A stretch of DNA of 64,000 bases from Nitrososphaeraceae archaeon (GTDB lineage: Archaea > Thermoproteota > Nitrososphaeria > Nitrososphaerales > Nitrososphaeraceae). This document shows, piece by piece, positions 52,654 to 61,202 of this stretch. The stretch covers positions 26,361-90,360 of the forward strand of contig JBIOZG010000054.1 in NCBI GenBank assembly GCA_044870765.1. Direction: 5' to 3'. The translations under genes and the position numbers were made by a program. The notes beneath the pieces were generated by a model. The model searched no databases. It had not been told where the DNA came from and worked only from the letters and a program-made list of their open reading frames with translations. Position 1 is the first letter of the stretch, and every line of letters starts with the position of its first letter.

Positions 52654-53517
52654 TCAAATACCTCGTACCCTTTCTTTACAAACTTCCAGATAGCTCTTGT
52701 CTATATCAAAACCAACGAATGAAACCCCTAATCTTAGTGATGCTAATGCAGTTGAACCTATCCCAACAAATGGATCCATCACCACTCTGCACTTACTGAT
52801 GCCATGCAATCTGATACACATTTCAGGAAGTTTAGTTGGAAAAGTAGAGGGATGTGGTCTTTGTTCTTTATCCCAAATAGTTTCATAAGGAATGAACCAA
52901 GTGTTACCACGGTCTCGTAGATCACGTGTAGCCCTATTCCAGCGACCGATATTTGTTTTGTCTTGATAAGGTACGCCAATAGCTAGTTTGTCCAATTTAA
53001 CATTGCCATTCTTAGTAAAATGAAAGATGAATTCAGAGCAATCATTTAGAAATCTATCACTAACAATTGGCTTGAAATGTCCAACGGCAATATCTGATAT
53101 TATGGATGGGTAGCTTCCTACATCAGATTTTGGTATGGCAATAGATTTTACCCAAACGATGACATTTTGTAATGTAAAATACTTCCTGAACACGTTCGCG
53201 ACATCAAAAGGAATCCAAGGATCTGAAGGTTTGCTTCCAATGTTTATAAAAAACGAACCGTCATCAGAAATTACTCTATTGATTTCAGCCCCAACACTGC
53301 TCAGGAATTTCAGGTATTCTTGTCTGGGTAAGTCATCTTTATAGCGATTATACTTTATGCCAATGTTATACGGCGGAGAAGTAACAATTATATCAATTGT
53401 CTTATCAAGCAGATGATTTTTAATTCCACTGACACAGTCGCCTAGATATAACCTTACGGATACATCTTTGCTAATAATTTCAGCGAATTTTAGTGGTATC
53501 TCTTGCTTAATTTCAAT
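52654..53517 (-). CDS. Orphan beta-class N4/N6 DNA methyltransferase; start codon non-canonical (ATT) or lost
   Basis: Frame open from 53517: [20 protein letters not shown] and [11 protein letters not shown] motifs. Confidence 0.88.
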
Positions 53518-55114: not shown

Positions 55115-55495
55115 TTATTTTGTCTGAAGTACGGATAAAAAATTTCCAGCAGAATCTTTAAACCATGCTATTTTTGGTTTACCATGGAAGATACCTTTGT
55201 CGTCTGTTTTCAATTCTCCTTCGTTATAGATCTGAAAATGTACTCCAGCTTTAGTAAGTTGATCTACTGTTGATTCCACATCATCAACTACAAAATTAAG
55301 TACTGTAAAAGTTGCCGGACTGTGATCTGTTTTTGGGTAAATGAATATCTCGTTACCACCCTGAAGATGTAAATTTAACCCTTCTTCTGAATCTGATACT
55401 TCAAGTCCCAGAACTTGATTGTAAAACCTTTTGGCTTTTTCTAAATCGTTGACTGAAAAACTAGAAAAAGCTTTTGTGTTTTTGAAATCTACCAC
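55115..55495 (-). CDS. VOC/glyoxalase family protein
   Basis: [16 protein letters not shown] and AWFKDSAGN. Confidence 0.9.
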
Positions 55496-57720: not shown

Positions 57721-59523
57721 TCATGCCCTCGTATCCAGAGCATTTTCCTTCATGAATACAACAGGACTAAACGCATTGAAGAAAAATGGAGAACCCGAAA
57801 ATGACAAAGGCGAAACTGGTCCTTGAGTCATGAATGAATATTTTTTGGTCTTTGTATTGAAAGAACTTGCCGGATCAGTAAATGTCCTATACAGATCAAT
57901 AGCTTTTTCATCCGAGACTAATTCTCTTAGTGTAACTAAATCGTTACCCAATGAAAGTCCAAATCCAAAGAACATGATTCTTAACTGTTGTAATATATCC
58001 CTATGTATACTAGATAGTGATGTGCTGATAAAAAGCCATCCTAAACCATATTTTCTAGTGGTCCTCACTGCATCAAGCAAAGTTAGCCTCAATTGCTCAA
58101 GATTTGAATCTGAGAATTCGTCTTTCCTGGCGAATCTGTGGGCTTCGTCAAGAACCACGAGCGTGTTTAATGACGTATTCTTTTGCCAGGTCTTTTCACC
58201 AAGGTTGACTAACCCAGTTAGCAATCGCTTCAGTATGAGTGATTGGATAGTTTCATTCCAGTATCTTAGTTGCATTTTGTGGGCTGTTTGTTCTGAAAGA
58301 TCTATTACGATGAGTGGTTTTAATTTCCAGGAAAACTTTTCTAAAAGATCATCAATAGTTATTGCATCTTGCCTATCTTCAAACAAACTACAAATCGGAA
58401 TCCAGAATTGAGAATACAGGGTCTCTAGATTTTTTGGATCCAAGTTAGAAACAAGATTATTAAGTCTTTTTCTTGGTTCTGGAGTCGAAAATATAAGGAT
58501 CTGAACTTCTTCTTTGCGAAGTTCATTTATGAACAGGTCAAATGATTCTCTTTTTATCAGCTTATTCAGTGAGGTTTTATTTCTAAGTTTAGGTATCAGT
58601 GCATCTACAGCATATCTCTTATTTAGGCCCTTTATTGTTAATTGATGAAAGATTTGCGATTCCAATAAAATTTCTTCAAATAAAGACCATCTATCTAAAA
58701 CTAGATTTCTAACATTAATTGAAAGAATTTCTTTATTCAGAGAATTCATTATTTTTTTCATATCAAAACTAGAACCATAATTATGATTTCCGTTTGAGAT
58801 ATTGCCATAATCATTTGCATTATCAATTGCAAAACTTTTTGAAAACTCTCCTACGGGATCCAGTACCAATAATCCCATCTGTTGAAATTTAGAATATGCT
58901 GTAAGAATCATTTTTGCCAATGTCGATTTTCCAGATCCAGTTATTCCAAATATCCCCAAGTGGTAGGCTTCTCCGGCCCCGTTTTCCCCATAATCAAAAT
59001 GCTTGAACCACATCGGTAATTTAGTCTTGGATCCATAACTATTCCCCAAATAAAACAAACTGTTCTTTTGCTTTTCTAATATTGTACTCAATATATCATC
59101 GCTTACTTGATATACATACGTTCCTGTTGGTGGTACTGTTCCTAGGATGCTTGGTTCAACAAGATTGTCTGAACTGGTGAAGATAGCACTACAAAGTAAC
59201 TTTCCTATATGAACATCTTGTATACCACTAATAGGATTTACCGATCCTCTTTTTCTTGCTACAGATTTTATTGTTGGGTCTTCCAATAAAAAGTTCTTTA
59301 GTGCAATCTCTATTATTTGACCAATTGCATAATGATTCTTAGAATCTTGTAAATATTTGAAAATAGCCAATTCTCCCACAAGTTGTCTTGTGACGGAGGA
59401 TTCCATAATATCTAGGGCAAGCTCAATCGTAGAAGAGGGGGATCCAATCGTTCCTAATATAGAACTATTTTTTAATAAATTATTAATCTTTTTATCTACA
59501 GTATTCTCCAAACTTATTTCCAA
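57721..59523 (-). CDS. herA: HerA/FtsK-family ATPase (HAS barrel plus DUF87-type motor)
   Basis: N-terminal LGTIGSP HAS-barrel; HLGIFGITGSGKS Walker A, VLDPVGEF, VVLDEAHRF Walker B, RKYGLG. Confidence 0.9.
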   Translation of the reverse strand: MEISLENTVDKKINNLLKNSSILGTIGSPSSTIELALDIMESSVTRQLVGELAIFKYLQDSKNHYAIGQIIEIALKNFLLEDPTIKSVARKRGSVNPISGIQDVHIGKLLCSAIFTSSDNLVEPSILGTVPPTGTYVYQVSDDILSTILEKQKNSLFYLGNSYGSKTKLPMWFKHFDYGENGAGEAYHLGIFGITGSGKSTLAKMILTAYSKFQQMGLLVLDPVGEFSKSFAIDNANDYGNISNGNHNYGSSFDMKKIMNSLNKEILSINVRNLVLDRWSLFEEILLESQIFHQLTIKGLNKRYAVDALIPKLRNKTSLNKLIKRESFDLFINELRKEEVQILIFSTPEPRKRLNNLVSNLDPKNLETLYSQFWIPICSLFEDRQDAITIDDLLEKFSWKLKPLIVIDLSEQTAHKMQLRYWNETIQSLILKRLLTGLVNLGEKTWQKNTSLNTLVVLDEAHRFARKDEFSDSNLEQLRLTLLDAVRTTRKYGLGWLFISTSLSSIHRDILQQLRIMFFGFGLSLGNDLVTLRELVSDEKAIDLYRTFTDPASSFNTKTKKYSFMTQGPVSPLSFSGSPFFFNAFSPVVFMKENALDTRA

Positions 59524-59525
59524 AC

Positions 59526-60656
59526 TTATGAACCACCATCAGTTCTGTATGAATGCATTAGAAAAAATATATCTTTTTCATTATTATCACTTATCTGGGT
59601 CATTTGTTTCATGATGATTTGTTTATAGGCTGGAATGGCCGGAGCCATGTGTTTAGCTATTCTATCAGCCATATATAGCGGAAATGGTTCCATTATCGAC
59701 GGCGTCTGGCATTGACTCTTTACATTGTATAAAATTGTATTTAGTTTAGTTTCATCTCGGGCAATAGCTGCTGGCATTTCAATCCTTAGGGCAGGGCACC
59801 AAGCATGAGGTTTGTAATAAACTACACACAAATTTTTTATACCTGAAACTACTTGTTGCATAAGCGTATCAAGTTCTTCGTCCTCATAAGGTAATCTTAC
59901 ATGCCATCCTTCTTCGCTTGTAAATAATTTTGGACGCGTAAATTCACCAGGATCCAAGATTAAAGTCAAGATTGCTCTATCGTCGTAATTTTCAGGCCAG
60001 TGGAGGTTCTTACCGATATCATTCCTTGATGTATATTTTGGTATACCGAGATAAAATTTTTCAGGGTCCTCAACATCCAATATTTTCTTGTACGAAACTA
60101 AAAATTCTTTGAAATCTTCCTTGATTCTATCGGAAGATTTTGTATTAAGATTTTCTATAAAATTAACAGCCTTATACATATGGATTAATGCTGTTGTAAG
60201 CGAACCGTCGAGATACAATATGTCATATTGTGCATTGGCTGCTAATTTGATTTCCATCTCTAACATAATAGCTCTTGCTGCAATCATATTTTCCGGATTA
60301 TGTTTTTCAGGGTTAACATACACATCATGGTTGGCTGGTATCATTTTTCCGTTTTCTAATTCATTTATGCCCTCTACTCCAACAGCAGCTGCGAATAGCA
60401 AATCAGTGCCCAAGAGACGATCTACAGCATAAGCGCCATCTACTCCACCAGAAATTAAACGCTTAATATTTCTGAAGTTAATATCATTATCCAGTAGCCC
60501 AACTTGTTCTAGCTGTAAACGAAATTTTTCTTTTTTACAATTTATATCATGAATCGAGTTTTGAAGTATATCTCCTATTTCGTTAGTTTTCATTAACATC
60601 TGTTCTACCAAGGACGCTGGAATCTCCAGAAAAGACGGTGAATCAACTTCATACAT
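59526..60656 (-). CDS. nurA: NurA-family nuclease
   Basis: GGVDGA, LYLDGSL, GIPK, DDRAIL, LRIE and EPFPLYMADRIAK; ends 2 nt before the herA start. Confidence 0.88.
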   Translation of the reverse strand: MYEVDSPSFLEIPASLVEQMLMKTNEIGDILQNSIHDINCKKEKFRLQLEQVGLLDNDINFRNIKRLISGGVDGAYAVDRLLGTDLLFAAAVGVEGINELENGKMIPANHDVYVNPEKHNPENMIAARAIMLEMEIKLAANAQYDILYLDGSLTTALIHMYKAVNFIENLNTKSSDRIKEDFKEFLVSYKKILDVEDPEKFYLGIPKYTSRNDIGKNLHWPENYDDRAILTLILDPGEFTRPKLFTSEEGWHVRLPYEDEELDTLMQQVVSGIKNLCVVYYKPHAWCPALRIEMPAAIARDETKLNTILYNVKSQCQTPSIMEPFPLYMADRIAKHMAPAIPAYKQIIMKQMTQISDNNEKDIFFLMHSYRTDGGS

Positions 60657-60928
60657 TGCTATTTATCACATTTCTACTCAAATTTACTGAAAATTTGTAA
60701 ATGTGAATCAAATCTTCCAAAGGTTCTGAAATTAGTTTTGCTCCTACTCTCATTGTCATTTTACAATATAGTCAGTAGATACTTAGCTTTATGCCTTTCT
60801 GATAGGATCATTTTTACAATGTTCTGAATTAAATTCCAAATGGGCAAAAATCACTATAGATTACGGATTTATTGTAGTATAATCTTTTTATCTTTGCCAT
60901 AAAATCATATAATTTGTATCTTTATTCT

Positions 60929-60985
60929 CCGGTGGGACCTCAATTGTAATCTCGCTTATGCTTGAGCCTCCTCCCAACAGGTTTT
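60929..60985. repeat. Degenerate copy of the GGTGGG hairpin element
   Basis: CCGGTGGGAC-CTCAA...TTGAG...TCCCAACAGGTTTT. Confidence 0.5.
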
Positions 60986-61028
60986 AACTTTTTTATAAAA
61001 TGTTGGCTTTAGATAATCATAAATCCGT

Positions 61029-61092
61029 AACAACGATTCATTCCTGGTGGGCCGGCCTCCAAATGCCAATCATGGGCCCACCAGTTTTCTTA
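61029..61092. repeat. Dispersed hairpin element, copy 2
   Basis: 10-bp perfect stem CTGGTGGGCC (61044-61053) / GGCCCACCAG (61075-61084). Confidence 0.75.
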
Positions 61093-61202
61093 ACTAACTA
61101 TCTCTAAATATTTCTCCTATTATGACTGAATAATAAAATACTTTTACTCCCTCTCGGTAAGGCGTATTCCAAATTAAATCCCGACAGAGCTACTGATCTT
61201 GT

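Follow-up and report, generated by a model that had tools for sequence, protein, structure and literature searches.

HerA-NurA is regarded as the archaeal counterpart of RecBCD, the binding of NurA to HerA is textbook knowledge, and HerA combined with other effectors is known from phage defence. We examined a nurA-herA gene pair in a stretch of 64,000 nucleotides, called the window throughout, from a Nitrososphaeraceae archaeon, a soil ammonia oxidiser (assembly GCA_044870765.1, positions 26,361 to 90,360 of contig JBIOZG010000054.1). The genome, G000 in our numbering, is 96.65% complete in 59 contigs, and the pair lies on its contig C54. We put at roughly 0.55 the probability that the pair is a resident HerA-NurA end-resection machine that acts with an unlinked Mre11-Rad50, and a xenologue that displaced native pairs. 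A preliminary description of the locus had proposed a horizontally acquired second system, possibly acting on foreign DNA.

The pair shares several features with the HerA-NurA end-resection complexes of the archaea Sulfolobus solfataricus, Thermococcus kodakarensis and Pyrococcus furiosus, whose genes sit with mre11-rad50, namely the folds of both proteins, adjacent and co-oriented genes, the DG aspartates of NurA motifs I and II, and the Walker A and B motifs of HerA; its orthologues in sister genera, which belong to the lineage that we call type C, even head an mre11-rad50 operon. However, the window's proteins are 13-16% identical to the solved chains, the pair itself is not linked to mre11-rad50, and it carries an Asp in NurA motif III and a Thr at the HerA sensor position. 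The defence systems Sir2-HerA, DUF4297-HerA and TdpAB resemble it in joining a HerA-type hexameric ATPase to a single effector gene. The effector in the window, unlike those of Sir2-HerA and DUF4297-HerA, is a true NurA, and the NurA-like chain of TdpAB (8wfd_G) matches the NurA model weakly (template-modelling score TMq 0.41). NurA-HerA of Deinococcus radiodurans and Thermus thermophilus is likewise a two-gene unit without mre11-rad50, and D. radiodurans HerA (7wrx) is among the HerA fold matches, but a PDB sequence search gave no match to these proteins and the DruA-linked clade described below is a separate lineage.

The nearest sequence kin is a bacterial DruA-NurA-HerA cassette (NurA 35-48% and HerA 42-51% identical), which has the same nurA-herA order, spacing and protein lengths and falls in the same clade in both trees. 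It differs in that the window has neither DruA nor inserted defence genes, Thr replaces the sensor Gln, Walker A reads G[ITS]TGSGKS in the family rather than GKTGSGKS, the family stands on a long stem, and sister genera have the mre11-rad50 linkage. Through these bacterial relatives, type I Druantia (DruABCDE) shares DruA (DUF4338) alone; the window lacks DruA and DruB-E alike. Druantia is not known to include NurA or HerA.

The NurA and HerA proteins

The genes and residues discussed here are listed below, in window coordinates.

59526..60656, minus strand: nurA, 376 aa, type-C NurA nuclease (open reading frame (ORF) list, Pfam NurA)
57721..59523, minus strand: herA, 600 aa with a TTG start, type-C HerA/FtsK-type hexameric translocase ATPase (Pfam DUF87/HerA)
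60657..61202, no strand: spacer 5' of nurA, 546 bp with no ORF of at least 60 aa
60438-60440, minus strand: codon of NurA Asp73, motif GVDGA (translation)
60207-60209, minus strand: codon of NurA Asp150, motif LDGS (translation)
59664-59666, minus strand: codon of NurA Asp331, motif ADRIAK, where other NurAs have the motif III His (translation)
58924-58947, minus strand: HerA Walker A, GITGSGKS, residues 193-200 (translation)
58138-58152, minus strand: HerA Walker B, LDEAH, residues 458-462 (translation)
58021-58023, minus strand: HerA Thr501 (FISTS) at the sensor Gln position (translation, alignment)

Both genes are what the preliminary description took them to be. They are co-oriented, with 2 nt between the stop of nurA (ending at 59526) and the start of herA, and the non-coding neighbour given as about 550 bp measures 546 bp. 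All of the reported motifs occur in the translations, including FPLYMADRIAK in NurA and RKYG in HerA. Pfam agrees, with NurA (PF09376) matching at 31.8 bits against a cut-off of 21 (E 1.3e-7, residues 88-305) and DUF87/HerA (PF01935) at 52.1 bits against 23.2. The replacement of the sensor Gln also held: the SQ/TQRP that follows RK[YF]G elsewhere is absent, and an alignment of 43 HerA rows places Thr501 at this position.

The 'DG' aspartates of NurA motifs I and II and the motif III pattern LxxAHxxxA are defined in a 2026 review (PMC13748450). D73, G74, D150 and E135 are invariant in 17 relatives. At motif III the protein reads LYMAD331RIAK, with Asp for His, and A330 and D331 are nearly invariant across the 17-sequence alignment. 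The Asp is a trait of the entire type-C clade and no defect of the window's copy.

Structure predictions supported both folds, the RNase H-like one of NurA and the HerA fold of an N-terminal barrel, a RecA-like core and a helical insert. The AlphaFold2 model of NurA has a mean predicted local distance difference test (pLDDT) score of 94. NurA chains fill the first ten places among its PDB matches, with 2ygk of S. solfataricus at the top (E 4.4e-12, TMt 0.70) and 9x1m and 3tal also present. Every PDB fold match listed for the HerA model (pLDDT 83.8) is HerA-type, with E down to 4e-20. This model resembles repair and defence HerAs about equally (template-modelling scores of about 0.5-0.66 for both classes), and the fold search thus fails to discriminate between them. 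The Pfam HAS-barrel profile gave no match on HerA, though the model is beta-rich over residues 22-139. Since conservation among relatives begins at HerA residue 23, the TTG start, or one close by, is right.

In PDB sequence searches, HerA gave only weak matches (best 2.6e-4); NurA alone gave none, and a 72-sequence NurA profile found 3tai alone (1.1e-3). The NCBIfam HerA equivalogs score far under their cut-offs (helicase_HerA 29.3 against 970 bits, HerA_Thermprot 18.9 against 800), as does HerA_antiphage (30.9 against 800), and no NCBIfam NurA equivalog matched the window's NurA. In PADLOC-DB v2, NurA was unmatched and HerA had weak partial matches (best 2.9e-14, 50 bits; mad8 1.3e-10), with no one system matching both genes.

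NurA-HerA and Mre11-Rad50 in the genome and the family

Profile searches of G000 returned one NurA match and two DUF87 matches, and tblastn queries of the family's remaining NurA and HerA types returned no match. On contig C15 an aspartate kinase gene is followed by an operon of mre11 (429 aa) and rad50 (880 aa), which overlap each other. The NCBIfam names of their products are Mre11_Pyroc (2.7e-36) and Rad50 (4.3e-43), both under the curated cut-offs. The four genes are therefore divided in G000, with mre11-rad50 on C15 and nurA-herA on C54. The pair is not a second system, as had been supposed, because it holds the sole NurA and the sole NurA-linked HerA found in this genome and mre11-rad50 is separate. 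A search for a canonical locus elsewhere in the genome, which the preliminary description had recommended, thus yielded mre11-rad50 but no other nurA-herA genes. The other DUF87 match, on contig C1 (L014 6535-8079, plus strand), is a solitary ATPase of 514 aa that has no nuclease neighbour; a broken copy of it, 75-82% identical, lies in pieces on contig C27 (1257-1653).

Wider searches show a mosaic in the resection genes of soil ammonia oxidisers, to which at least four NurA-HerA lineages contribute. In type A a single operon holds the genes for a short NurA (279-284 aa), HerA (504-526 aa), Mre11 and a roughly 700-aa Rad50. Its HerA matches HerA_Thermprot over the entire profile (389 bits) and its NurA matches NurA_Sulf; type A is the canonical Thermoproteota-type cluster, a lineage different from type C. 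Type B is a stand-alone NurB (about 350 aa) with HerB (about 490-507 aa). Type C is the lineage of the window's pair. Type D, seen for example on records titled Nitrosopolaris, is a nurA (371-388 aa) and herA (523-553 aa) directly 5' of Mre11-Rad50 of the G000 type. This type-D arrangement precedes G000-type mre11-rad50 at eight loci of other genera (L214, L215, L218-L221, L229 and partly L226); in genus g1 the aspartate kinase gene stands there instead of a type-D pair.

All four types were searched for in the same 60 family genomes, each at least 90% complete, with the following results.

Type C HerA: g1 7/7 (two cut by contig ends), g20 6/7, g61 2/2
Type C HerA elsewhere: intact in G081, divergent but intact in G053, stop-riddled fragments in G121 and G196
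Type B HerB: 43/60, in all genera except g1 (0/7), g20 (0/7) and g61 (0/2)
Type A HerA: 17/60; none in g1, g20 and g61 except weak matches to the lone C1 ATPase
Type D HerA: 8/60

No genome of the 60 is without a NurA-HerA type, and type C is the sole type found in 15. Its distribution, which the preliminary description had proposed to check for patchiness, is patchy and concentrated in g1, g20 and g61, and type C is fixed in exactly those genera where the otherwise near-universal NurB-HerB was not found. Both types occur together in G081, in G053 and, outside the 60-genome sample, in G006; in three larger genomes placed in g1 (G018, G001 and G003), type B is present and type C was not found. 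Within the window's genus a NurA orthologue occurs in 16 of 24 genomes, a count that includes the unpublished G020, just as the 7/7 count for g62 includes the unpublished G192. Two Pfam NurA searches of genomes, one across the order and one of five genomes, missed known type-C orthologues, among them those of G000 and G010, and no type-C absence rests on them. An apparent HerA remnant in G024 proved to be a contig end and not a deletion. A 165-aa gene thought to be shared, and so to mark the insertion point in g20 and g60, was discarded, the ORFs being unrelated (an RTX repeat protein and a carbonic anhydrase).

In sister genera, type C is joined to mre11-rad50. In G063, nurA (400 aa) and herA (626 aa) are followed on the same strand by genes of the Metallophos (409 aa) and SMC_N/AAA_23 (862 aa) families, with 8-72 bases between neighbours; its pair is 54% and 63% identical to the window's, and the best NCBIfam names of the last two genes are SbcD/Mre11 and Rad50. 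The nurA-herA-mre11-rad50 order recurs in all 21 public loci of the g20/g61 type with readable downstream DNA, and the remaining two of the 23 end at herA. These mre11-rad50 genes are resident repair genes and not island cargo, because Mre11-Rad50 of the G063 type also occurs without nurA-herA, in genera g60, g62 and g67, and because no orthologue of the G000 Rad50 was found in G063, G207 or G176. No mre11 follows herA in the loci read from the window's own genus. A NurA-HerA-Mre11 order has been reported for Nitrososphaera-related metagenome-assembled genomes (MAGs) and is treated there as repair potential (PMC13707971).

Selection on the pair is strongly purifying. Between the window and three genus relatives, the ratio of nonsynonymous to synonymous substitution rates (dN/dS) is 0.042-0.086 for HerA and 0.043-0.076 for NurA; seven neighbouring genes range from 0.0 to 0.31, and the pair is as low or lower. 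Both genes are intact in all 21 loci of the genus that hold both.

Three observations concern related genes of the family and order. Two relatives in the genus have about 2.3-2.7 kb of DNA, with small ORFs, between mre11 and rad50 (L197 7291-9978, L205 7291-9551). In one Nitrososphaeraceae record, mre11 and rad50 of the G000 type are each split into two ORFs (L232 5992-9958), which may reflect either gene breakage or misassembly. The most frequent NurA of the order is a short form of about 280-307 aa (Pfam E down to 1e-27; L027-L046), and in G041 (L061 7572-8492) and G090 such a gene, without herA, adjoins an acetyl-CoA synthetase gene.

Bacterial relatives, origin and function

An exhaustive profile-free search returned 390 cluster representatives at E up to 1e-3, mostly full-length at 370-400 aa. 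A genome scan built on the 17-sequence alignment, with one genome per species, gave 341 relatives; it used one peptide pattern and is a sample of the type-C clade only. The best 80 of the 341 were kept, of which 50 are Nitrososphaeraceae-type records (at least 51% identity) and 30 lie outside (35-48%). The outside loci span Bacillota, Acidobacteriota, Nitrospirota, Chloroflexota, Cyanobacteriota, Verrucomicrobiota, Bacteroidota, Spirochaetota and others, and three of the 30 are archaeal (Ferroglobus, Nanopusillaceae and a Thermoproteota MAG). A type-C HerA follows NurA in 22 of the 30; of the remaining eight, six are cut short, one breaks off after a GmrSD-like gene, and L150 has other genes. 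Twenty-five outside loci have a readable gene 5' of NurA, and 24 of these carry DruA, of about 380 aa, on that side. The six loci without it comprise five with less than 520 bases upstream or a cut NurA, and L147, which has a different gene. Pfam PF14236 identified 23 DruA-like proteins among 30 neighbour ORFs (E 1e-62 to 1e-109), the PADLOC DruA profile matched at 1e-86, and a purpose-built DruA hidden Markov model recovered all 24. DUF4338 is called a GNAT-like acetyltransferase domain in one paper (PMC10853773).

Other genes of defence type are found inside some of the cassettes. In five loci one or two genes stand between DruA and NurA (TmtA-like, 3.7e-98; LmuB-like, 8.8e-48; STK/ORC-CDC6-like together with CARF-like; a pentapeptide protein), L133 has a GmrSD gene between NurA and HerA, and in L141 the gene after NurA is GmrSD-like. 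The positions of the defence-type genes are L133 9135-10907, L141 1435-3201, L134 4854-7985, L135 5352-7475 and L129 1946-5616. Such insertions suggest an insertion slot or accessory sensors. DruA-NurA-HerA is a candidate defence cassette of bacteria, for which a literature search found no published description or name. The 2026 review states that bacterial NurA-HerA degrades viral DNA and acts in defence, and that bacterial nurA lacks stable synteny (PMC13748450). The tight DruA-nurA-herA synteny does not fit the latter statement. No DruA (PF14236) above cut-off was found in G000, in 61 family genomes or in the 50 family loci; there is accordingly no DruA gene 5' of the window's nurA, while the window's NurA and HerA belong to the same clade as the cassettes.

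Trees were inferred with quick IQ-TREE runs under LG+C20 from 43 HerA rows and 48 NurA rows, drawn from 11 of the 50 family loci, three further loci and all outside rows with a full-length protein. Type-C rows are united in both trees (Shimodaira-Hasegawa approximate likelihood ratio test (SH-aLRT) 99 for HerA and 98 for NurA), far from types A and B and from lone NurA. All family rows except G053, whose copy stands apart on a long branch, form one clade with support of 100 in both trees, on stems of 0.81 (HerA) and 0.66 (NurA). In the HerA tree, rooted with the outgroup, a 29-row group (SH-aLRT 97) holds this clade together with bacterial and Ferroglobus rows, and rows of Verrucomicrobiota, Chloroflexota and Cyanobacteriota branch nearer the base; in the NurA tree the clade falls in a polytomy. 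Type C is sister to, or nested in, a horizontally mobile bacterial DruA-NurA-HerA cassette. The preliminary description had called for such trees, and they bear out its view that the pair is distinct from the canonical archaeal resection genes: the pair groups with mostly bacterial DruA-linked rows, type A is a separate lineage and the NCBIfam equivalogs score far below cut-off. That description would have yielded to a sole nurA-herA pair that was syntenic across Nitrososphaerales and grouped with the canonical resection proteins; half of this applies, since the pair is the sole one found but does not group with them. Its claim of a horizontally acquired bacterial-type module is borne out insofar as the nearest outside kin are bacterial cassettes in both trees; the direction of transfer, we infer, was probably from bacteria.

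The sensor position separates the family from its relatives. All 14 HerA rows of the Nitrososphaeraceae clade read [FL][IL]STS and G[ITS]TGSGKS, and all 23 type-C rows outside that clade (22 other organisms and G053) read FISQ[TS] and GKTGSGKS. The six outgroup rows comprise three type-A sequences and the lone G000 ATPase, with VSQRP, and two HerB sequences, with ITNQP. The change from Gln to Thr is accordingly a derived trait shared by the whole Nitrososphaeraceae clade.

Under the resection reading, a NurA dimer nuclease and a HerA hexameric double-stranded DNA translocase would probably form the genome's only HerA-NurA end-processing machine. HerA would thread a DNA end into NurA, whose degradation of the strands would yield recombinogenic 3' tails, and the Mre11-Rad50 encoded on C15 would be the partner in trans. 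What the analysis shows are the identities of the genes, their folds, tree placement, contexts, distribution and constraint, whereas the complex, its activity, the partnership with Mre11-Rad50 and the course of the transfer are inferred. Within the Nitrososphaeraceae the type-C lineage would have lost DruA and exchanged the HerA sensor Gln for Thr; in some genera the pair would have become the first half of a nurA-herA-mre11-rad50 operon, and in the window's lineage it would have replaced the native NurA-HerA pairs, a case of xenologous displacement. More tentatively, and at somewhat less than even odds, we suggest that an ancestor of several soil Nitrososphaeraceae genera captured NurA-HerA from a mobile anti-virus cassette of the DruA type, stripped it of DruA, retuned it through the Gln-to-Thr change and wired it to the resident Mre11-Rad50, with displacement of the native pairs. 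Capture from the bacterial radiation is the more economical course because of the tree placement and the derived Thr, albeit with an insecure root. A captured pair may serve both repair and defence.

Several points weigh against the resection reading. The pair of G000 is unlinked to mre11-rad50, its nearest relatives outside the family sit in an apparent defence cassette, and Thr in place of Gln could affect how the ATPase is coupled. The patchiness of type C in the family and its decay in two genomes fit an accessory defence-like gene too, and the flank on the nurA side varies among species of the genus. The complementarity of types B and C has exceptions (G081, G053 and G006), and it may reflect only one or two evolutionary events, because related genomes are not independent. 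Finally, the trees are rooted on outgroup branches of more than 2.3 changes per site, and the NurA tree has its polytomy.

Part of this evidence would suit a minimal, DruA-less defence module, in which HerA-NurA would load onto invading viral or plasmid DNA at its free ends and break it down, the mre11-rad50 linkage being secondary. Type-C NurA and HerA do group with cassettes that carry DruA in 24 of 25 readable outside loci and, in some, TmtA-like, LmuB-like, STK/CARF-like or GmrSD genes; two copies in the family are decayed (G121, G196) and the upstream flank is variable; HerA with a single effector is a known defence layout, with Sir2-HerA, DUF4297-HerA and TdpAB among the fold matches; and the review cited above asserts that bacterial NurA-HerA degrades viral DNA (PMC13748450). 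We nevertheless consider such a module unlikely, given a pair that is the genome's only NurA-HerA, in stable synteny and with very low dN/dS, that has no DruA above the Pfam cut-off in G000 or 61 family genomes and no defence or mobile-element genes beside it, whose NurA is unmatched and HerA weakly matched in PADLOC, and that stands in an operon with resident mre11-rad50 in 21 of 21 readable sister loci. Action on foreign DNA, as first proposed, is therefore not supported by the context.

Somewhat less probable again is an old, vertically inherited archaeal repair paralogue from which the bacterial DruA cassettes were borrowed, in which case transfer went in the opposite direction and the pair would not be of bacterial type. 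The polytomy of the NurA tree and the long outgroup branches under both roots would allow it, the fold of NurA is nearest to archaeal NurAs (2ygk, 9x1m, 3tal), and three of the 30 outside loci are archaeal. However, archaeal type C was seen in part of one family and three scattered records only, against many bacterial phyla on short branches, and a protein search gave no type C in 16 further families of the order. In the HerA tree, moreover, the basal rows are bacterial (Verrucomicrobiota, Chloroflexota, Cyanobacteriota) and the family clade lies inside the 29-row group (SH-aLRT 97); its Thr is derived, as Gln stands in every outside type-C row and in four of the six outgroup rows. The missing DruA, the lost sensor Gln and the broken copies in G121 and G196 might also suggest a decaying or functionless remnant of an acquired cassette. 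We disfavour this strongly and regard it as very improbable, as the frames are intact in all 21 genus loci with both genes, dN/dS is 0.04-0.09 and all catalytic residues are kept.

One well-supported clade thus spans two settings, a bacterial DruA cassette with defence genes and an archaeal pair that is either joined to mre11-rad50 or the sole one of its genome. Homologues this close (HerA 42-51% identity) can be tested for targeting of self breaks versus foreign DNA, and such a pair of homologues lets one ask what DruA and the sensor Gln contribute. If the capture from an anti-virus cassette is true, it would document the domestication of an immune nuclease-motor into an essential double-strand-break resection machine. 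Annotation by name only, as in recent comparative work on soil ammonia oxidisers, hides real lineage differences.

Neighbouring genes and other features of the window

The gene 3' of herA encodes a 163-aa PF06983 protein (3-dmu-9_3-mt), a family that we take to belong to the glyoxalase/vicinal oxygen chelate fold; a metallo-beta-lactamase-fold gene and a Glyoxalase-family gene (55115-55495, Pfam) follow. A Pfam scan of the window found neither mre11 nor rad50 in the flanks of the pair, in agreement with the preliminary description, and neither Pfam nor PADLOC, the latter run on the pair, gave defence or mobile-element genes beside it. The flank on the herA side is collinear in eight genus loci, and of the 19 genus loci that extend at least 1 kb beyond herA, 18 have the PF06983 gene after it. 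The flank on the nurA side is common only to relatives at about 96% identity or more.

The 546-bp spacer presumably holds the nurA promoter. Rfam gave no match in it (best E 0.66), no tRNA was found, and its fold z-score is only -1.72. Within this AT-rich spacer lies a perfect G+C-rich 10-nt inverted repeat (61044-61053 and 61075-61084, with a 21-nt loop), which occurs once in the genome and is conserved in the closest relatives alone.

The pair is covered at 93-100% likeness by contigs of four RNA-labelled soil runs, which come from three studies, and one contig per run bridges the nurA/herA junction. Contigs of runs X1 and X2 cover everything, and those of X3 and X4 are without cover over the 3-dmu gene and the far upstream spacer, a part that does not count as a finding. 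Because RNA-labelled libraries may contain DNA, these contigs do not show transcription.

Elsewhere in the window, a 179-aa ORF (52654-53193, minus strand) matches positions 71-220 of the 221 in the N6_N4 DNA methylase profile, that is, its C-terminal two thirds. Since it is 82-98% identical in genus relatives, with low dN/dS, this ORF is probably a short but functional form and not a fresh fragment.

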